A stretch of DNA of 64,000 nucleotides, taken from Podarcis filfolensis (lineage: Eukaryota). Position numbers and translations under genes: made by a program. Below the pieces are notes generated by a model, which saw only the letters and a program-made list of their open reading frames with translations, had not been told where the DNA came from and ran no database searches. The stretch is from NCBI GenBank assembly GCA_964270895.1, contig OZ185437.1. The stretch is one strand, 5' to 3'. Of the stretch, positions 4,947 to 48,362 are shown one piece after another (the stretch's first letter is position 1; the number at the start of each line of letters is the position of its first letter).

Positions 4947-5352
4947 TTATTTATGTTTTGTTCTCTGAGCCAAAGCCTGCAAATTGGCAGGCCCACCCCA
5001 AACAGTTCCAAAAACCTCTTTTTCGGTCGTCAAGGCAGCTTCTAACTGCAGCTCTCGTCCTGCAGAAACCACTTTCTTCACAGCCTGAATTACTGCAGGA
5101 GGGCCCTTTGTGTATGGTCTGAGCCATGTACGTGTTTCTTCCAGTGACTCAAGTTCATCAGACGAGGACAACACGGCTTCTACCAGGCCAATACGAAGGG
5201 CGGTCTCTGGATCCACTTTTACAGCACCACTCAGCAATTTGAGGGCAGGGCTGCTGCCAAGGATTTGTACGAGCCTGGCAGCTCCTCCCCAGCCTGGTAC
5301 TAAGCCCATCTGCTTGTGGACAAATCTAATTTCGCTCTCCGGGGTCATTAAC
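4947..5352 (-). CDS. ECHDC1: ECHDC1 last coding exon (406 nt including TAA)
   Basis: Acceptor TTTCTCACTGACAG|GTTAATG at 5353; LMTPESEIRFVHKQMG...RTKHK*; stop at 4949-4947. Confidence 0.97.
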
Positions 5353-8300
5353 CTGTCAGTGAGAAACAAGTATTCAGTTGTTAATTTATACTGAAGCTTA
5401 GCAGTCAAGCCATCTCAGTTCTCTCTGCCTCATTCCTATGCAAAGCACAATTTCGGATGGCAAGATGCAGACTGTAAGTGTTTTCTAACGTTAGGCAGGC
5501 TAATGCTACATCAAGCAAGCAATTTGCAGAGACTGAATCCAAAGTAAGGCAAAACAAATGGATCAATTTGAAAGGGAAGACAACAACCTTTAATCCAAAA
5601 TGAGAAGCCAGCATTTTTATATTAGGTTGAATATTACCTTTCAGATCAGAAATACGCAAGGACAGATTCTTATTACCACCTCAGCATGGGTCAGGGGTTG
5701 TTTAAGGACAACCTATGCTCATTTTCAACGACTTCAGTCTGAGGAATTGCAATGAACACATATCTTCTTCTTTGGCGATCACTCGTAGCCGAGTAAGATT
5801 GTCTTCCATAAACACGGTTTTAACAATGAGTCCGTAAGTGACTGGAGGCCAATTCTGGACCCACACGTCCTTCCACAGTGCAGACATTGGTTCCCGGGCG
5901 GGAGTTGATCACGGTGTGGATTTGCCAGGCGTGCCTTCCTCTTAGCACGTTTCTCCCTTGAGTTTGAGTGTCTTCAAAGTCCATGACACCTTTGGTAAAG
6001 GCTGTTCTCCAACTGGAGCACTCGCAGGCCACTGTTTTCCAGTTGTCAGTGTTTATACTACATTTTTTTAGATCTGCCTAGACAGTCTTTAAACCTCTTA
6101 ATGAACACACATAAAACCCTATGGGCATGGGGCTGAAATCAGATGGCAAGACTGGGAGGGATTGTTTTGCCATGAAGCAGCCCATGTTTTGCTGGACTTT
6201 CTTAGCTAAGCAAACATTTGTGGTCATCAGGATTCCATTGGTCCCATTTTTATTTTTTTTTAAAAGGAATGCCAAATGGGGCTTACTCCCAAGTAAATAT
6301 GCACAAATTGTCAGCCCTAGTCCTAGTCTGTTTATTTATTCAAAGCCCTGGTCCTAGTCTGTAAATTTATTCAAAGCCCTAGTCTTAGTCTGTAGATTTA
6401 TTCAAAACATTCACATTTTAGTGAAGAATCCAGGCAGCACGAGAATCAAGAAGTGATGGGGAAAACAACAGAGAAAAATGAGATTTTGTTCTATAGTTCA
6501 GTAAAAAAGAGAGAGAGAGAGATGGCAATTGCTATAATTGTCAGGCCCTTGCCTTTTTTTGCGTCTCATGTGAATGCTCTTTATTGTGCTTTAAAAATAG
6601 AGAGAGAAGCACAATGCTGAGGTTAATGCCACTTTGCAGAGGAAAACTAGTGCAGTTACCAGCTGAATTGGAAAAGGCCAAGCAAAATGATAAAGGGGCT
6701 AAAGTAACTCCCATATGAGGAAAGGTCACAACACCCAGGACCCTTTTTTTGGGGTGGGGATAGGGCAAATAAGCGAGAGAGAAAATGATATGTGCAAAAT
6801 TGTGCATGGTGTGCAGAAGGAAGGGACACCTCAGGAAGCCGAATGTTACAGGTTTCAGGGCAGACAAAAGGAAGTGCTTCACACAGCACACAGGTAACTA
6901 TAGGATTCGCTACCCCACAACATAGTGGTAGCCACCAACTCGGACAGCTTTAAAAGGTACTTATACAGATTAATGGAGGACAAGACTATCAAAGACTCCT
7001 GCCCATGATGACTATATATTAGCTCCAAAATCAGCGGCGATGTGCCTCTCACTACCAGTCGCTGGGGAGAACAATTAGGAAGAGTTGATGCTGCACTCGT
7101 GTCTTGCTTGAGGGATTCCTGCAGGCATCTGGTTGGCCACTGAGAGAACAGGATGCTAGACCAGGCAGGCCTCTGGTCTCTTCCATCAGGGCTCGTCTTA
7201 TGAACCTGATGATATGTTTCTGTACTTTGCTGGAATAGGGCCAGAGACTTGAACAGGCTTGCCACAGTAAATTGTTCGGCAGCATCCGCTGGCCTTCGCA
7301 GCTCACGTCTTCCACAACATCTATGAACTTACCTTATTGTGTACTATCGTTGTGGTGATAAAACCTTGGCACAGTCAGAGTGGATATCAGGGGGGAGAAA
7401 GAGAGACAGTCGCACATAGGTCAGGAAGCAGGAAGGAATGAGGGGTGGATAACGGAGGGGAAGAAGAGAGTGAGCAGCAGGCAAGTATGGGGCGGCGGTT
7501 ACGAAGAAGGAAGAATGAGGCTGAGATCAGGATCATACAGAAGACAGAGACAATATGCAGATTGAGAGCTTCTGGAGAAGCAACAATACATGCATAGGTT
7601 TTATTTGCTGGGTACGCAGAACCCTGAGTTTCTCCCACTGATTTTAACCAGAAAAAAAATTAAAGGAATGTATGCTGTAACAACCTGAACATGGAAGGCA
7701 TAATTTTTGAGAGAAGTTCTTATAAATGTGCAGCCACTGCTGCCACCATTCTCCATGCTTCCCTCGCAGGCCTACACAGGAGGAACATTATGTGGACATA
7801 AGCCAATATTATCACGTGTGCTACACAGAACTCAGTCATGCAGACAAATAATCTTCCGCACTGAACATGGACTTTTAAGGTTGTCTGGAGAATGCCCTGT
7901 TTAATATGTATCTGCTTGAATCTGCTTTCAAATATAGAGAAATTTGTTTGGATTATTGCTATTAATAGGTAACAAACAGAAAAAAACACACCAGCAACTA
8001 GACAATAATCCAAAACACTGTGGTCCATGCTGCTGGGAAAATGGCAACTCTGGGCTATATACATAGAATTGTAGAGCTGGAAGGGACTCTGAGGATCATC
8101 TAGTCCAGCCTTTCTCAACCTGTGGGTCCCCAGATGTTGTTGAACTACAACTCCCATCACCCCTAGCTAGCAAGGCCGGAGCTCGGGGATGATGGGAGTT
8201 GTAGTCCAACATCATCTGGGGACCCACAGGTTAGTCCAACCCCCTGCAATGCCGGAATATGCAGTTGTCTCATACAGGGATTGAAGCTGCAGCCTTGGCC

Positions 8301-11300
8301 TTATCAGCACCATGCTCTAGCCAGCTGAGCTATCAGACACATTGTTTGAAACAGGATGGAAATTAAACACAAGGGAAGGGCTGTGGCTCAGGAGTGGAGC
8401 CCATGCTTTGAATGCAAAGGGACCCAGGCTGAATCCCCACCTTCTACGGGTAGATCTGAGACAGGCTGAGGGCAGGCAGACTGAGTTAGGTGGAGTCATG
8501 CCCATTTTTCTTAACAGGACAGCCTCCACGGCTTGCAGCTCTAAAAACGTGTTTAAAATGCAGATGATTAAAAAGGCCGGTCTGACTTTTGCAGGTCACT
8601 GCAGATATCATGAACTCAGCTGACCAATGGAAGATTAAAAATGAGTATCCCTCACACTTCATGCATAAAGTGATCCCTCCGTTTCTTAGCTTGCACCTTA
8701 TTTCTGTGAGCACATCATTGGCTCACATGAACACACTGCACCAAGCTCGCAGCAGTGTTTTGTCAGCTTACATTTCTCAAGAAGAGCTCATATGTGAATG
8801 CTCGGTGTGAAATTTAGGCCATATATTTGTAAGAAAGAACTGTGAACAGAGGAAACTTCATTTCGCATTAAAACCATCTTGTTTACTGGACCGCTGCTCT
8901 GGATTTAAAAAGAAGAAATAAAAAAACCATAACAACGCCTGTGTGTTCCTCTCTAATGATATGACTTGTGATTCAAGTAGCATGGTCTGGAATACTAATG
9001 ATTTTTACAGTTTTCCTAGAAGAGAAGGATAAGCAACCTAGAAAATGCAAGAATTTGATCTGCCATAGCTCCAAAGCTTTATTCACTGGCAAGCAGGGGG
9101 AGTGAGGAGAGGAGGGGAGTGTGATGGAGCCACATATCTCAGAATCTACTTTGGTATCACTTACACACACAACAAAGCTGTGTGTATTTTGCCCATGTAC
9201 AAATGTGCTTTGCAAATATAAAATTCAACCTAAGTTTCTAGTTAGGAGATGTGTAGAGATAAGGTCTCCCACATTTTCAGGCCTGCTGAAGAATCAAGAG
9301 TTACAAATCCCAGACACCTCTGGCAGTATTCTAGACTGACTGGAGTGGGGGGGGGGGCGATTTACAGATGTAGAGTCTGCTTCAAGAATATCATAGGTAA
9401 AGCTAAAGGACCCCTGGATGGCTAAATCCAGTCAAAGGCGACTATGGGGTTATGGCGCTCATCTTGCTTTCAGGCCGAGGGAGCATTTGTCCACAGACAA
9501 CTTTCCGGGTCATGCAGCCAACATGACTAAACTGCTTCTGGGGCAATGGAACACCGTGACGGAAACCAGAGTGCACATAAATGTCGTTTACCTTCCCACC
9601 ACAGCGGTACCTATTTATCTACTTTCACTGGCATGCTTTGGAACTGCTAGGTTGGCAGAAACTGGGACAGAGCAACAGGAGCTCACTCCGTCGCACAGAT
9701 TCAAACTGCTGACCTTCTGACCTAAAGCGTCTATAAAGGTCTAGGCTGTGCCTCCTCCATTTATCCAGACGAGGTAAGTGTGGGTTATTCAGGATAGAAA
9801 CCTGCTCAGCATTTTATTTTCTAGTCCAATTCAAAGGTCACCTTCTCCCAGAACCGGGTGATCAGTGGAACTGACCTCCAGCTTACAAACTTCTGCTTCC
9901 CAGCTCTGCATCTCCCTTGAACTGCAACAGAGAAGGGGGACCTGAGGGCTTCGTTCACATAGAGCATGTGCCAGCAAGTTCCTCCCTATCTTCCTTGGAT
10001 TTCTTTATTCTTCCCTTACCAGAGCACTGTGAGACAGAGCTGCAGAAAAGCCAGCCATGTAATGTAGTAATCAGACCTATGCTAATGCCCTATTCTCTGT
10101 CCCCCCCCTCCATTTCTATATCATTGCTAGTAGCACTGGGAGGAGTTCGAAAGTGATTGAAGTTAAAGCCATATCTTCAGTTAGCAGAAGCATTAAACAT
10201 GAGATCTCAAACTGAAGTTTCCCACCTCAGGCCAGCTTGTAATTATACAGTATTTCATGCTTGTAATTATACAGTAATATCTAAACTGTGTGGCTAAATG
10301 CAAAGCTATTTTTAATTGATGCTTCTCCTCTCCGCTTCCCCTTAAAAGAAGTTGAAAATTTGTTTCTGCACAGAGCTCTTCAACTTCATTTTTTTCCGTG
10401 CCAAATAACCTGATCGTGGTATGAGGCCTAATTACATAGATTCAGACACAAGGAGCTGGCATTAGCACAGGAGTCGAACACAAAAGGAGGATGGCGGGTA
10501 GAGGAAGTGATCCATGGGTCATGGGTGCTTTAGTTGAGATTCCTGCATTGCAGGGGGTTGGACTACATGATCCTCGGGGTATCTTCCAACTCTACAATTC
10601 TATGAACACCCAGTACCCCTGACCATTGGCCAAGCTAACTGGGCCTGAACTCCAAATGGCCGGCATTCTTCTGGCATGCCTGTAACATTAGCTCATCCTC
10701 CAGCAGCACATGAACATGGTGAATGCCCAGCCACCTGGAGAGCAAACCCAGCCTGTGACACTTCCACTTCTGCCTGCCACCCCAGCTACCAGAAAAAAGG
10801 AACTCCCAAGAGTTACAGGTTAATTCACCACCGGGGAGGGGACAACTAGGGCTTTTTTCAGCCAGAACTTGCCGGAACTCAGTTCTGGCACCTCTCAGGA
10901 GGTGGGCGCCATTGCCATTCTAAGAGAACAAGTGTTCTAGAAAAATGTCAATGGGGACAACCACTGGCTAACTCTCCTGTCACCAATGAGTGAGTTCGTT
11001 ATTTATTTAGTAAGTGTCTATCCCACCCTCTCCCCAAGGGAGAAGTTCTCCCCGCTTGTCATTTTATCCTAGCAACAAAACGATGTGGCAAGTTAGGCTG
11101 AAAAACAGTGACTGGCCCAAGGTTGCCCAGTGAGCTTAATGGCCGAGTGGGGATTTGAACCCTGATCTCCCAAAGCCTAGTCCAATGCTTTAACCACTGT
11201 ACCAAACTGGTTGTTCAGGTCAGCCTGTTTAGCCCTCCCCTGCTTTCCGCCAAAGCATGAAGTCTGAAAGAGCAGTCTGACATGCAGGGGGAAGACCCTT

Positions 11301-31547: not shown

Positions 31548-31893
31548 AAAAGTAAAGGGACCCCTGACCATTAGGTCCAGTCGTGGCCGACTCTGGGGTT
31601 GCGGCGCTCATCTCGCTTTACTGGCCGAGGGAGCCGGCATACAGCTTCCGGGTCATGTGGCCAGCATGACTAAGCCGCTTCTGGCAAACCAGAGCAGCGC
31701 ATGGGAACACCGTTTACCTTCCCGCGAGAGCGGTACCTATTTATCTACTTGCACTTTGACGTGCTTTTGAACTGCTAGGTTGGCAGGAGCAGGGACCGAG
31801 CAACGGGAGCTCACCCTGTCGCGGGGATTCAAACCGCCGACCTTCTGATGGGCAAGTCCTAGGCTCTGTGGTTTAACCCACAGTGCCACCCAC
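31548..31893 (-). mobile_element. Sauria SINE (second subfamily)
   Basis: Near full-length; same core as 9395 but with the CACAGAGCCTAGGACTTGCC head and TGGTCAGGGGTCCC tail variant. Confidence 0.92.
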
Positions 31894-32209
31894 GAAAGGA
31901 TCATATTATGGGATTAATCTAAGTGCTTGTGAAATCCACGCAGGTGTTCCAAACACAAGAAAAAGAAATCCATACCTATTATATACAAGAAGGCTAACAG
32001 TGTCAGCTAAGGAAATGTTAATATTACACTAGCTGTATGGAGGGTCTGTCATATACCAACACATTTCATAATCGTAGACTGCTGTAAATTGGTGTAGTGT
32101 TTCTCTAGGTAGTATGCTGTCACCTAGCAGCAGAACAGGGAATAGCATGTTTAATATCACCAGATAGGTACTGTATAAGGAGGGCCTTTTACCAGCTTTA
32201 TATTTTATT

Positions 32210-35495: not shown

Positions 35496-38052
35496 CTTCC
35501 CACTCTTTGGCCCATCACTCTTCTTGGGGGGGGGGCCTTCTGCTGCCCTTCACCATCTGGACACCTCAGCCCGAACAGCTGACAATAGTGACACAAGTTC
35601 TTTTTGATGAATCAAGGTGTTCTCTTCTGCAAATTAGCATCTCTGTGAACCTCTTACCCCCCACCCTGGTGCCCTCCAGACGTTAGATGCTACAACTACA
35701 ACCACCCACCCCTACCCAACAGAGGTGGATGGGGCTGATGGAAGTTGTAGTCCAAAGGAGGGCACCTGGTTGGCATCTTTCAATCCTACATGTCTGCAGT
35801 TGCTCCGTTGCAAAGGATCAGGTACTTAGGCTTCTGCCAAAGTAGCTATCTCTGTGGTAGAAGAAATAACATTTGAATAATCTATATTCTTGCATGTTCT
35901 CTGCTCATTTCTGTCCTATACAACAGCTATGAGTTATCATGCAAGTGTACATATTAAATGATGATCACTGTTGCTTTCTGTTCCATCTTTCTGTTTAGAC
36001 TAGGAATTCTTTTTTCGGGGGATTCAAATTATCAGTTTCATTCTAGATGGCAATATTTAGGGAAATTTTCTTTGTGGAAGTTGTTTCAGGAAGAGACATT
36101 ATCTACCTTCTGATTCCCATGCTATGTACATACGCACAATCATATTTTGTTGTTTCGCATAAGGTCACTAGGGGGCACATAGCTCTTGAACAGTGTATTT
36201 GGAAGCAAAGCCTGACGATGCCGGATCACTGTGAGTTCATTCACTATATACTTTAACAGTACTGATCATTTATTAGTTTGTAGGCACGTTTAACAGCTTG
36301 CTTGAAAAAACCCCACACAGGTAAGATAGGACACTGCTGCATTATTTCATCACAATGGGATAATAAAAAGAAACACTCTTTTAGTGCTTTCTCTGCTAAA
36401 TCCATTTCCTGTTTCTCTCTTTCCCTAAATTATCTTTGTTCCTCAATGTAAAATGTACTTTTCACAAGGGGAGGAGTGCAAGAGGAGGAGAGAATATGTG
36501 CAATACAAAATAGGGGTCTTTTTAATTTCTTCGACTGTGTTCATATATTTTCAGTATATGAAGGAGCCTTGGGCATGTGCACTCCTTCCTTCCCTGTCAT
36601 CCTCACTGCAGCCATGAGAAGGAAATTGGAAGCATTTGCTTTTTGTTTCAACTAACCACAATGTGACATTTTTTCAAAACTGAAGCACATAGCTTTTCAG
36701 CAGGGAGACAAAATGTCATCTTTTTATTTACTTTCTTTTTTATTAAATACAGAATAAAACAAAATCATTGCAGAAAACAGGTAAGAAATATCAAAGCAAA
36801 GGAAAAAAGGGGGTAATACATTCTACATGTGACATCAGGTGTAAAGCAGATATAGACATGTCTGGAAAGGAACAATCAAAGTCCTTAAAGTGCATTCCTA
36901 TTTATTTCTTTAAAAGTCCTGCAAGCATTGGCCATACTATGGCATTCCTGATCGAGAACTCCATAGTGCAGTTGGTCAGAGCTAATTCTTTTTAAAAATA
37001 AAATATTACCATGACAAACAACTCAAAAGTGCAGTTGGAGGGTATTACGGTTAAGTATATTTGTTTAATTGACACTGAAATGAGGAATGGCTGTTGCTGA
37101 AAGGCTTTAACTGGAAAATTCAGCTAAAGAAGTGGTTTCTGTGCTTTAACTGGTTTTTAATTAACTGTTGTTATTCTCTATTAGCTAACACATGAGTGTT
37201 TAACCTTAGATCAGGTATTTGGTTGTAAATCTCCATTTTGAAAGGGAGTTGCCTTTAGTCTCTTTTCTCAGGCTGTATGAGAATAAGATGCCTCTCCAGG
37301 ACCTGCATACCTTAACGGGCTGGAATGCAGGCTAATGGAGCCTGTGAAAGAGAGAGCTAGGTTTATCAGCTCTGATTATAAGTTTATTTCTAAGAAGATG
37401 AACCTGTGCAGGACTTGGAATTATTTGGATGCATCATTTACTGTGTTTTGTTCTGTTTAGGAGAACGTTCCGCAACTACAGTAAAGTTTTGAACATTCTA
37501 ATGGGTCTGGACAATGCTTCATTCCAAAAGGACCCCGTTTTTATGCATCCAGTCGCTTCAAACTGCACAATATTAATATCTGCAATAATTACATCATACT
37601 GTATACAAAGCAAATAAGCGATAAATAAGAGAAATAAATGGTGGCACACCAATATAAACCAAGACATCCATATTTCCTGTGCTAGCATGGATTGTGAATG
37701 TTTCCTGTGCTAGCATGTGCTAGCATGGATTGTGAAAGTCTGTAAGTTCTAGTTAATTCTGTCCAGATCTAGTTCTCTATCTTAAACAATGGTTTCCTAT
37801 TTGGAGGCCATGGAAAACTACTTTAAGAAACTAAAATACCTTAAACTGAGCTTAAGAGGGGAAGAGAAAAGGGAAGGGAGAAAGGAGCATACAGGCACAC
37901 ATATCATATTCAAGGTGACAAACCATGGTTTACTGGACTGGGAATGTTATGTCTGAACTATGCCTAAGGCTGTATTTGCATAGCTTTTCTCACAATTTGG
38001 CATATCAGTGCCAGGAAGACAGAGTTTCTTAAAGGAGACTTGCCATGCAAGC

Positions 38053-38856
38053 TGTCAGAGCTGCCCAAGGTCCCAGCTCACAAAGGACCAACGCTGCTTC
38101 GTTGTTAAGTACAAAAGTCTTTATTGAAGTTCAGTTTCACTTCCAGAGCCGCAGCGCGCAGCTCTACGTCTCAACTGTCAGACCGCTGATGCTCCGTCTG
38201 AGTCTCCTCCCCCCAGACACCAATTTAAGACTCTAGCCTTACTCCACCTCTTCCTCTGTTCCTTCCGCCTCTGGTTCTGCCTGGCCGTTGGGGTCTCGCC
38301 CTTTCTAGACTCTTCTGACGCTGAGTCCCCTGAGCCTTCCCCCTCCCTCCGGCGGGCTTTAGGAGCTGGTTCCCCATCCGGGTCTCCTGCTGTTCCCCGC
38401 GCCTGTACATTTGAACTTGGCGCGCGCGCCCAGCCGGTAACTTTTCTCCTGACCGTTTCACTGCTGTTGCTGTCACTGCTTCCCCCTCTGGGGGGGCTAG
38501 CTGCAACTGACCTCCCCTCCGTTGGAGGCGTGGTCAGCCCTGACTCCCTCTCTGGAGGAGACGCTGGCCCTGACACATGTGACTCTTCCCCCCCACTACG
38601 CTCTGGTGGGGAAACTGGTCCCGATCCCCCACTGCTGCTTTGGGGTTCCCCTCTGGCTCCTTGTTTCTGGTGCGTCCCCCCTGGGACCCCCCTTGCCCTG
38701 ACCATCGGCGCCCCCTTCTGGGAATCTTCTGATTCGCTGGAGAAGCTCATGGAATCTCTCGGGCCACTGTCATACTCCCCTACGCTGCCCTCAGATTCTT
38801 CCCCTTCGCTCTCCATTTCCTCTCTCCCCTGTGCTCCTGCTCCTGAGTCCCTGACA
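38053..38856 (-). mobile_element. Solo LTR (804 bp) with a 212-aa ORF in U3
   Basis: TGTCAG...CTGACA perfect inverted termini; perfect TSD CAAGC (38048-38052, 38857-38861); AATAAA on minus at 38125-38120; CpG-rich. Confidence 0.9.
38178..38816 (-). CDS. LTR-encoded ORF, function unknown (acidic Ser/Glu N-terminus, Pro-rich middle, Arg/Lys-rich C-terminus)
   Basis: ATG-initiated 212-aa ORF lying wholly inside the solo LTR; expression not shown. Confidence 0.35.
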   Translation of the reverse strand: MESEGEESEGSVGEYDSGPRDSMSFSSESEDSQKGAPMVRARGVPGGTHQKQGARGEPQSSSGGSGPVSPPERSGGEESHVSGPASPPERESGLTTPPTEGRSVAASPPRGGSSDSNSSETVRRKVTGWARAPSSNVQARGTAGDPDGEPAPKARRREGEGSGDSASEESRKGETPTARQNQRRKEQRKRWSKARVLNWCLGGGDSDGASAV

Positions 38857-39769
38857 CAAGCCTATTCTGGCCTTGCTGTGAGTTCTATTTGCCACACCAT
38901 GCTCAAGGTGCATGTGGCTTAAAAAAGCGCCACGTAATTGTGCTCCTAAATACATAACACACCCCCTGCAGTTCAAACATTGCTTCGGTTCAGCAGCAAA
39001 TTTCCTAGCTGAAGCCTGCTCAACCTCTACAGCCAGAAAGATGATGTTTTCAGAAGAGTTTTGCCATTTCAGCATCAGGCACCTGTCCAATTTCATCAGA
39101 ATTGTGTCTGCTACATTTTAGCACATCCCCCTCCCTCTAATGATTAAACTACATGCCTGCTCTTCATTTCCCAGTGCTGACCCTCTGCAGCTGTACAGCT
39201 GCACTGTGTAAGCCGTACCATGGAAGCCCTGAGCTTTCTCTCTCTGGACAGTTATACTAAACATTTATTTCATTTCACAAAGAGGGCAGCTTCTCTGTTC
39301 TTCCCATATATAGTCATGTTGGGGAAGAACAGGAGCACTGAGGCATTAGTTACAATGACAGGTTTACAAAGTGAAAGCAGAAGGTAAGTCTTAGAACAGT
39401 ATAGGGGGAAGCAGCAGAGGAAAACTGCCTTAGTACTTCATAGGCTTGTCTGAAGCTGGCTGGCAAGAAGCTGGCATTCAGCTCTCTGCTCTTGTGATTC
39501 CCTTCACGCATTGGCAGCCTGAAGCGGGCACAGCGACAAAAATCAATGAATGAGTAATGGTGCGGCATTCTGTTTTTCAATGCTGAACTCGACACAAAAC
39601 AAGGCATGGATTTCAATGAAATATTATGGCCCCAAAGCACAGCTCATTGCTATTGAAAGCTATGCGACTTTGTTATAGTCTAATTGTTAGTTATGGGATC
39701 GCAGGGGGGCAAGGATCACCTAAAATTCCTGGGTGCCAGGTTCTCCCCACAGTTGCTGAAATTAGTAAA

Positions 39770-40360: not shown

Positions 40361-40646
40361 CAGGCATTGGGTTCCACTGGGAGAAAAGATAAGGCAGGCA
40401 TTTGCCATATATTTTGCTCTATAAGACTCACTTTTTCCCTCCTAAAAAGTAAGGGGAAATGTGTGTGCATCTTATGGAGTGAATGCAGGCTGCACAGCTA
40501 TCCCAGCAGCCAGAACAGCAAGAGGGATTGCTGCTTTCGCTGCGCAGCAATCCCTCTTGCTGTTCTGGCTTCTGAGATTCAGAATATTTTTTTTCTTGTT
40601 TTCCTCCTCCAAAAACTAGGTGTGTCTTATGGTCTGGTGCGTCTTA

Positions 40647-41001
40647 AAGGTAAAGGTACCCCTGCCCATACGGGCCAGTCTTGACAGACTCTAGGGTTGT
40701 GCGCTCATTTCACTCTATAGGCCGGGAGCCAGCGCTGTCCGCAGACACTTCCGGGTCACGTGGCCAGCGTGATAAGCTGCATCTGGTGAGCCAGCGCAGC
40801 ACACGGAACGCCGTTTACCTTCTCGCTGGTAAGCGGTCCCTATTTATCTACTTGCACCAGGTGGTGCTTTCAAACTGCTAGGTTGGCAGGCGCTGGGACC
40901 AAACGATGGGAGCGCACCCCGCCGCGGGGATTCGAACCGCTGACCATGTGATTGGCAAGTCCTAGGCGCTGAGGTTTTACCCACAGCGCCACCCGCGTCC
41001 C
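40647..41001 (-). mobile_element. Sauria SINE (young subfamily), full-length
   Basis: Complete GGGACGCGGGTGGCGCTG head to TACCTTTACC tail; 13-bp TSD CTGGTGCGTCTTA (40634-40646, 41006-41018). Confidence 0.95.
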
Positions 41002-42884: not shown

Positions 42885-43850
42885 ATTTTTTATTTGTGAT
42901 TTTTAGTTATATACATTTCAATAGTTTTACAGTCATTTTAACATTTCAAAACTTGGCTGACTTCCTCCTCTTTCTGCAGTTCCTTAAATTTATATTTATC
43001 ATTTCCTGCATATTCTAAAGTAACTTAACTTATTATTTTATTCACCTACTTTAATAATTTACTCTTATGAAACTGCAGATTATTATAATACCTGTTTACA
43101 ATTTATTTGTACATATTCAATAAACCATTTCCATTCTTTTATAAAAAAAATGCGTTGTCTTTATTTCGCCATTTTTGCATAGTCCATGAGTTTTTGTATC
43201 CAATCTTCTTTCATTGGAACTTCTTTCCATTTGGGGGCAAATAACATTCTTCCTATGGGGACGCGGGTGGCGCTGTGGGTAAAACCTCAGCAACTAGGAC
43301 TTGCCGATCGCATGGTCGGCGGTTCGAATCCCCGCGGTGGGGTGCGCTCCCGTCGTTCGGTCCCAGCGCCTGCCAACCTAGCAGTTCGAAAGCACCTCCG
43401 GGTGCAAGTAGATAAATAGGGACCGCTTACCAGCGAGAAGGTAAACGGCGTTCCGTGTGCTGCGCTGGCTCGCCAGATGCAGCTTGTCACGCTGGCCACG
43501 TGACCCGGAAGTGTCTGCGGACAGCGCTGGCTCCTGGCCTATAGAGTGAGATGAGTGCACAACCCTAGAGTCTGACAAGACTGGCCCGTACGGGCAGGGG
43601 TACCTTTACCTTTTAACATTCTTCCTACTGTAATTGCGTACATGAATAAATTTCTATGCTGTTTAGGTAGTTCTACCCCTATAATTCCCAGAAGGAAAGC
43701 TTCTGGGGTTTTTTTCTTTACAAATGTTATTTTAACATCTTTTTCAATCCATTATATATCATTTCCCAGTAAGCTTTAACCTTACTGCAAGACCACCACA
43801 TATGACAGAAAGCACCTTTTTTTTCTTTGCATTTCCAACACTTACTCCAA
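42885..43850 (-). mobile_element. L1-clade LINE ORF2 3' end, interrupted by a Sauria SINE
   Basis: Minus frames give SKCWKCKEKKGAFCHMWWSCSKVKAYWEMIYNGLKKML..KPEAFLLGIIG..LFMYA..RMLFAPKWKEVPMKEDWIQKLMDYAKMA: L1 ORF2 CCHC knuckle and C-terminus; AT-rich 3' tail toward 42885. Confidence 0.8.
43257..43613 (+). mobile_element. Sauria SINE (young subfamily), full-length
   Basis: Complete element; 14-bp TSD TAACATTCTTCCTA (43242-43255, 43614-43627). Confidence 0.95.
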
Positions 43851-48021: not shown

Positions 48022-48362
48022 GTTAAACCACTGAGCCTCTTGGGCTTGCCGATCAGAAGGTTGGTGGTTCGAATCTCCACAATGGGGTGAGCTCCCATTG
48101 TTCTGTCCCAGCTCCTGCCAACCTAACATTTCAAAAGCACACCAGTGTAAGTAGATAAATAGGTACCACTGTGGCAGGAAGGTAAACCGGGTTTCTGTGT
48201 GCTCTGGTTTCCGTCACGGTGTCCCGTTGTGCCAGAAGTAGTTTATTCATGCTGGCCACATGACCTGGAAAGCTGTCTGTGGACAAATGCCAGCTCTCTT
48301 GGCCTGAAGCGAGATGAGCATTGCAACCCCATTAACCGTCCAGGGATCCTTTACCTTTTTTT
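48022..48362 (+). mobile_element. Sauria SINE (same subfamily as 9395), 5' end clipped
   Basis: TAAACCACTGAGCCTCTTGGGCTTGCCGATCAGAAGG...CCTTTACC tail. Confidence 0.92.

Follow-up and report, generated by a model that had tools for sequence, protein, structure and literature searches.

The window, the whole stretch of 64,000 nucleotides of Podarcis filfolensis DNA that was analyzed, contains on its minus strand at 38053 to 38856 a solo long terminal repeat (LTR) of 804 nt, assigned by its sequence and by the architecture of its parent to a Ty3/Gypsy chromovirus family designated A. The sequence-only reading that preceded this analysis had called it a solo LTR, and this was borne out by the TGTCAG...CTGACA ends and by a 5-bp target-site duplication, GCTTG, adjoining the LTR on either side (upstream copy at 38857 to 38861, downstream copy at 38048 to 38052, minus strand). 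As was also claimed, a minus-strand frame is open for 225 codons from LTR nucleotide 2, running from 38855 to a TGA at 38180 to 38178. An ATG lies 40 nt in (38814 to 38816, starting at 38816) and opens a 212-aa peptide with the motifs that had been quoted, and the polyadenylation signal AATAAA (38120 to 38125, minus strand, starting at 38125) follows about 50 nt past the stop, just as described. A genome search for family A LTRs gave 2,486 first-look candidates, of which the 40 that were scored had 97 to 99% identity; most of 30 fetched family A loci carried a 5-bp duplication at both ends. Among the target duplications of solo LTR loci (L001 to L030 and L061 to L090), 14 of the 25 counted began with G, orientation being uncontrolled. 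Elsewhere in the window, a 155-codon minus-strand frame at 4950 to 5414 matched ECH_1 (enoyl-CoA hydratase; E = 3e-12), the sole Pfam match among the 103 window frames of at least 85 codons. An inverted pair of 356-nt segments (40646 to 41001 and 43258 to 43613; 95% complementary and 2.3 kb apart) consists of members of a dispersed SINE-like repeat, with further copies at 9483 to 9720, 31646 to 31894, and 48031 to 48290.

The strand carrying the open frame contains 11% T, and the earlier caveat was that a purine-rich, T-poor strand could have produced the ORF by chance. The shuffles did not uphold this, since, when the ORF span was shuffled 3,000 times with dinucleotides preserved, the frame in question came out open in 9 shuffles and at least one sense frame in 37. 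An antisense frame of 264 codons is also open (38128 to 38922, plus strand). It is not conserved, its third codon positions coincide with those of the sense frame, and it carries a stop in both related families tested; it was therefore rejected as a real gene and regarded as a by-product. A Pfam search with the sense and antisense ORFs matched no family, and the best score in an ESM Atlas search, 0.82, was taken as a lead only. Four sequencing runs from other organisms, guessed to be RNA, yielded fragmentary contigs of relatives that were uninformative on expression, start site, and splicing.

A genome search with a polypurine tract (PPT) pattern gave 41 matches, nearly all of them GGGGGGATGGA immediately ahead of an LTR, and the sequence around 36 of the 41 was fetched for the architecture of the parent. 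Full-length copies have two LTRs about 5.9 kb apart, with a 5.1-kb internal region taken up by gag (Retrotrans_gag, CCHC) and a pol encoding protease, reverse transcriptase (RT), RNase H, integrase, and a Tf2-type SH3 domain. The order PR-RT-RH-IN between two LTRs, the presence of gag and absence of env, the TG...CA ends, the target-site duplication, and the PPT before the 3' LTR place the element in Ty3/Gypsy, and an ERV origin was rejected. The best PDB match of the retrieved protein P0005 was Ty3 Gag-Pol (E = 1e-132). Related elements comprised a sister family, B, with a 753-nt LTR of about 70% identity and paired LTRs that are almost 100% identical; subfamily C, which is very young; and a distant family, D, with 57% Pol identity and a 434-nt LTR without significant nucleotide match to that of A. 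Pfam Chromo scored 43 bits in the D-type protein P0017 and was not detected in A, B, or P0006. The A/B region that follows SH3 nevertheless aligns with the Chromo region of P0017 and has a dN/dS below 0.1, which argues that it is a putative diverged chromodomain homologue (chromo-like). In an integrase tree of the retrieved proteins, the clade was placed among squamate, fish, and fungal chromovirus-type sequences, the tree including no named Sushi-ichi or Amn element. A GGGAAAC heptamer, the sequence of the PEG10 slippery site, occurs in the gag-pol overlap of B (L111:2424) and D (L216:2351); the overlap in the tested copies of A and C lacked it. Several family B copies have open frames of 1,879 to 1,881 codons (C2:110038216, C12:187119, C13:54025783, C11:46950238, and C3:27941528), which may join gag and pol in a single frame.

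What follows the 5' LTR is no tRNA-binding site; in families A and B, this stretch complements 11 nt lying 146 to 147 nt from the LTR end, and tRNA priming was rejected because the primer-binding site (PBS) complements the element's own LTR. In the window LTR, this self-primer is AGACGGAGCAT (38189 to 38199, minus strand), the predicted 5' end of R, which doubles as codons for D-G-A near the ORF end. Four primer positions differ between A and B with matching, compensatory changes in the PBS, further covariants occur in L106, L119, and family D, and the self-primer/PBS duplex occurs in the minimum free energy fold. The complementarity points to self-priming of the Tf1/sushi type, a group whose elements are described as self-priming in PMC4600332 and PMC6317226. 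From the self-primer position, the RNA would start at window position 38199, 24 to 29 nt past a TATA-like TTAAAT (38223 to 38228, minus strand), and U3 would extend from 38856 to 38200. The earlier statement that the U3 is the ORF thus stands insofar as the frame covers all of the predicted U3, but the ORF also enters R by about 20 nt. A search for a tRNA-primer PBS, with TGG following the LTR, mainly turned up solo LTRs, and these were reused as a sample unselected for identity (n = 29). The 2 to 7 nt right after the self-primer complement are hypervariable, with 16 variants even among near-identical copies (L091 to L160, L227, and L228), and may be a trace of the primer's capped 5' end or of nucleotides that RT added without a template.

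The sequence-only reading had suggested that full-length elements would use the frame of the 3' LTR, with reading possibly coming in from the PPT side. This proved correct, as the pol frame is continuous through the PPT in A, B, C, and D, and the upstream frame leads to integrase and SH3 in full-length copies. Two copies of family A have an integrase frame (...GGFEGGM-DVRDSG...) that passes directly into the LTR frame. In family B, where 30 loci were picked by LTR identity alone, SH3 is in frame with 208 LTR codons in 16/16 3' LTRs. Subfamily C showed a 1,546-codon frame in 73/117 rows, and a single frame leads from SH3 to the LTR stop at 29 loci (28 of C and 1 of B) out of the 30 fetched, a sample biased to open copies because the query carried the tail. 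In family D, the frame extends 109 codons into the 3' LTR where the LTR pair was fixed and stops just past its own self-primer, inside R; among 12 loci picked for long frames, 8 reach the LTR stop, 3 are frameshifted, and 1 has no frame. Tail length across families ranges from 109 to 232 codons. The same tails are present on Pol in public Podarcis gene models, and protein searches found the U3-coded part only in Podarcis-labelled or unlabelled records. All long-tailed A to D types among the retrieved proteins form one clade of the integrase tree (support, 0.997). The other chromovirus Pols retrieved mostly stop about 100 aa beyond the SH3 motif, and of 116 measurable proteins, 94 terminate no more than 150 residues past it. 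The window ORF (38178 to 38855, minus strand) very probably comprises the last 225 codons of pol and corresponds to the C terminus of Pol in full-length elements.

Evidence against an uninterrupted frame came from the junctions of family A, where in-frame spacing was kept in 12 of 34 measured copies; 21 were one or two G short in the G-runs that directly precede the LTR, and 1 had a larger deletion. Nine of 36 copies were open from SH3 into the LTR frame. The G losses strike different runs, copies with substitution-interrupted runs mostly retain the long spacing, and no G-run loss was found at the junctions of young family B copies (16 3' LTRs), which together points to slippage after insertion rather than assembly error. 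The commonest G loss was scattered on a noisy tree, built without the rearranged copies L103, L115, and L116 and distorted by deletions, and two small clusters share one, leaving room for a frameshifted lineage that spread in trans. L092, L101, L104, L108, L124, and L125 have in common the in-frame loss of 204 nt from the internal acidic linker that precedes the PPT.

Selection on the LTR-coded part was estimated by counting among natural copies. The dN/dS was 0.23 for A-B (bootstrap, 0.14 to 0.35), 0.24 for C-B, and 0.50 for A-C (0.27 to 0.92), compared with 0.05 to 0.19 in the integrase core, which is far more strongly selected, and 0.34 to 0.43 in the internal acidic linker. Gap-free D pairs gave 0.20 to 0.44 in 15/15 non-independent pairs. 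In a frame-blind nucleotide alignment of A and B, mismatches at codon positions 1, 2, and 3 numbered 48, 31, and 94 (p = 1e-8), a result stable under three scoring schemes; past the stop, the A-B alignment had no codon periodicity, and the codon-position mismatches of A-C alone were not significant (p = 0.16). Codon fits of U3 with iqtree gave a likelihood of -1537.4 versus a lower one of -1560.8 with the first parameter fixed at 1, the identity of that parameter as omega being unconfirmed, and the selection claims rest on the counting estimates instead.

Variant counts within family A, pooled from 57 full LTRs of 58 loci, separated inherited from private changes. Singletons comprised 32 synonymous and 91 nonsynonymous changes and 3 stops, whereas changes common to at least 4 copies comprised 32 synonymous, 30 nonsynonymous, and 0 stops (Fisher p = 0.001), corresponding to a dN/dS of about 1 (neutral) for private mutations and 0.3 to 0.4 for shared variants. 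Subgroup-wide indels were multiples of three (-9, +15, and -3). Of the 29 unselected family A LTRs, 17 were open for at least 227 codons (3 with compensating alignment gaps) and 12 were broken. Neutral private mutations together with constrained inherited variants show that purifying selection acts in the replicating lineages while solo copies decay, and the window copy is therefore most likely a fossil. Neutral decay among copies had been put forward beforehand as the refuting observation; the private mutations do behave in this way and the inherited variants do not, and because private neutrality is expected after insertion, decay of copies is the wrong test. With no upstream pol, and with its own promoter starting 20 nt before the stop, the ORF of the window copy is most likely not translated.

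The encoded tail is of low complexity, acidic and then basic, with 8 S/T-x-x-D/E motifs and basic clusters (coordinates on the minus strand). The motif SSESEDSQKGAP (38706 to 38741) is retained unchanged as a peptide in family B despite synonymous changes in 6 of its 12 codons, and is also found in P0004 and P0006; in the motif GGGDSDG, 5 of 7 codons are synonymously changed, and TTAAAT of family A reads TTGAAC in family B with Leu-Asn kept. The block encoding ARAPSSNV (38406 to 38429), by its 24 nt identical between A and B with zero synonymous change, is probably a DNA cis-element as well. Toward the end lie the cluster PKARRREGE (38337 to 38363), presumably NLS-like from its look, and a terminal basic run with (I/V)LNWC (38217 to 38273), which bears the only helices predicted within the U3-coded part, at low confidence. 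Distant families end in a similar basic run plus LLCW, and (I/V/L)L(N/S/C)W is common even to D and P0019. AlphaFold models of the stretch from the chromo-like domain to the end (4 sequences) had a mean pLDDT of 40.7, and even the chromo-like part was unfolded, which makes them weak evidence on disorder.

Vertebrate Tf1/sushi elements were reportedly treated by Butler et al. in 2001. The V-clade of these chromoviruses (Sushi-ichi and Amn) is like the lizard element in Gag, in the order PR-RT-RH-IN-SH3 followed by a chromo or chromo-like domain, in a PBS that complements its own LTR and not a tRNA, and in having a vertebrate host, but the lizard Pol goes on for 300 to 480 residues past the SH3 motif, through U3. 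The Tf1/sushi LTR ends TGTYANR...CTNACA, as tabulated in PMC3601003 (Table 3), are partly matched. In plants, the CRM group A (CR motif) and beet Bingo chromoviruses are described, in PMC3059260 and PMC3605345, as having a polyprotein frame that reaches into the 3' LTR. The lizard element shares this feature, whereas it is self-priming with lizard relatives rather than carrying a tRNA-Met PBS in a plant host, and its frame spans all of U3 and the self-primer. According to the same descriptions, the LTR-coded CR motif replaces the chromodomain in CRM/Bingo, whereas in the lizard the chromo-like domain stays upstream of the PPT; the two are likened by description. A UniRef entry from Podarcis muralis, "Gypsy retrotransposon integrase-like protein 1" (UniRef100_A0A670KNJ5), belongs to the same clade and has the whole tail at 56% identity; the P. 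muralis entries are automatic gene models whose names are silent on the LTR overlap. A literature search that did not extend to Repbase, Dfam, GyDB, or subscription journals, so that an earlier description is possible, returned no report of pol running into the 3' LTR for vertebrate or lacertid elements. Extension of pol into the 3' LTR is already known in plants, and the lizard case is a variant and not a new class of element. It would represent a vertebrate retrotransposon promoter with full dual coding, in which enhancer, TATA region, start site, and self-primer lie inside a frame selected for amino acids, and a clean natural example of how an LTR acquires a coding role, one with counterparts in the CRM elements of plants and the U3 genes of retroviruses. 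The finding is also a warning for annotation, as solo LTRs by the thousand in these lizard genomes bear a 200-codon fossil ORF, and gene predictors list these as hypothetical proteins (P0013 and P0015 are such models).

Taken as a whole, the locus is a solo LTR left by a presumably self-priming Ty3/Gypsy chromovirus; its ORF is very probably the end of pol and likely encodes a long disordered integrase tail that would aid nuclear entry or the hold on chromatin. Given an RNA start at the self-primer of the 5' LTR, U3 would be present only at the 3' end of the genomic RNA and would be translated as the end of Gag-Pol. The protease would then release an integrase with SH3, the chromo-like domain, about 135 acidic residues, and about 225 U3-coded residues that end in a basic helix. 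The tail, of low complexity and turning from acidic to basic, would remain attached to it. A role of the tail in nuclear import or chromatin tethering has about an even chance and is the likeliest one by analogy with Ty1 integrase, which, according to PMC9673352, has a large disordered C-terminus with a terminal NLS, a targeting stretch, and CK2 sites; the S/T-x-x-D/E motifs and basic clusters of the lizard tail are the points of resemblance. The likeness is a functional analogy only, Ty1 being a copia element with no homology shown, and an NLS role is judged from motif look and this analogy.

The same frame and selection data would also fit a U3-coded stretch made within Pol and then cut off by the protease as a small separate protein, a chaperone or regulator. 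Conserved hydrophobic patches in the internal acidic linker might be cleavage sites; however, no cleavage site was identified, and Ty1 integrase retains its long disordered C-terminus (PMC9673352), so this is unlikely. A further explanation, for which the chances are rather poor, is that the frame is open mainly for RNA reasons, a stop near the poly(A) site keeping the 3' UTR short enough that it would escape nonsense-mediated decay and the peptide being near-inert filler. The stop about 50 nt before AATAAA in A, B, and C and just inside R in D, the scaling of tail length with U3 length, and the low complexity all fit, but motifs survive synonymous change (6/12, 4/4, and 5/7 codons), a dN/dS of 0.2 to 0.4 exceeds mere stop avoidance, and the terminal basic-LLxW motif recurs in LTRs without nucleotide similarity.

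In the sequence-only reading, the 212-aa peptide begun at the U3 ATG was the candidate for an accessory protein in its own right, perhaps a nuclear regulator; the trans-activator role that this implies drew no support from the analysis. MMTV sag and lentiviral nef are separate genes on spliced RNAs whose coding sequence overlaps the U3 of the 3' LTR, and the lizard element likewise codes over this U3, but its frame is the end of pol, with no stop separating the two, and has neither a start of its own that is conserved nor a frame distinct from pol. The U3 ATG is present in 21 of the 29 unselected family A LTRs and is TTG or TGG in the other 8; it is TGG in the youngest subfamily, C, is missing in family B, and corresponds to Thr in the outside proteins P0004, P0005, and P0006, so that it is not conserved across subfamilies or families. 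Translation from an in-frame ATG inside the PPT of A, B, and C, by way of a spliced or internal RNA, would agree with the U3 frame being intact behind frameshifted A junctions, but the codon is GTG in several D copies. With the predicted start site only 20 nt before the stop, a stand-alone protein of the Sag or Nef kind is improbable, and the data do not support the original claim. A compositional accident, in favor of which the low T content and the open antisense frame could be cited, has a negligible chance and was refuted by the shuffles, the codon-position bias, and dN/dS including the family D pairs, the frame being kept between families with dS above 1.

A bolder and quite tentative possibility concerns a clade of recently mobile lizard chromoviruses in which the whole U3 promoter and self-primer have become coding. 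In these, the U3-coded stretch and the basic-LLxW helix at its end would be a novel module for targeting or importing integrase, or else an accessory protein freed by the protease, and would have evolved in parallel to the CR motif of plant CRM elements while the chromodomain was diverging.

The 5' and 3' LTRs of families B and C do not differ (100% identity), and full-length copies, nearly identical and numbering in the dozens, occur on all large contigs; both look very recently mobile. A B element nested within an A element was found at L111. Older full-length A and D copies, often in nested arrangement, are concentrated on C19 and toward the ends of contigs. Young C copies, in contrast, are scattered, and the concentration of the older ones looks like retention and not targeting.
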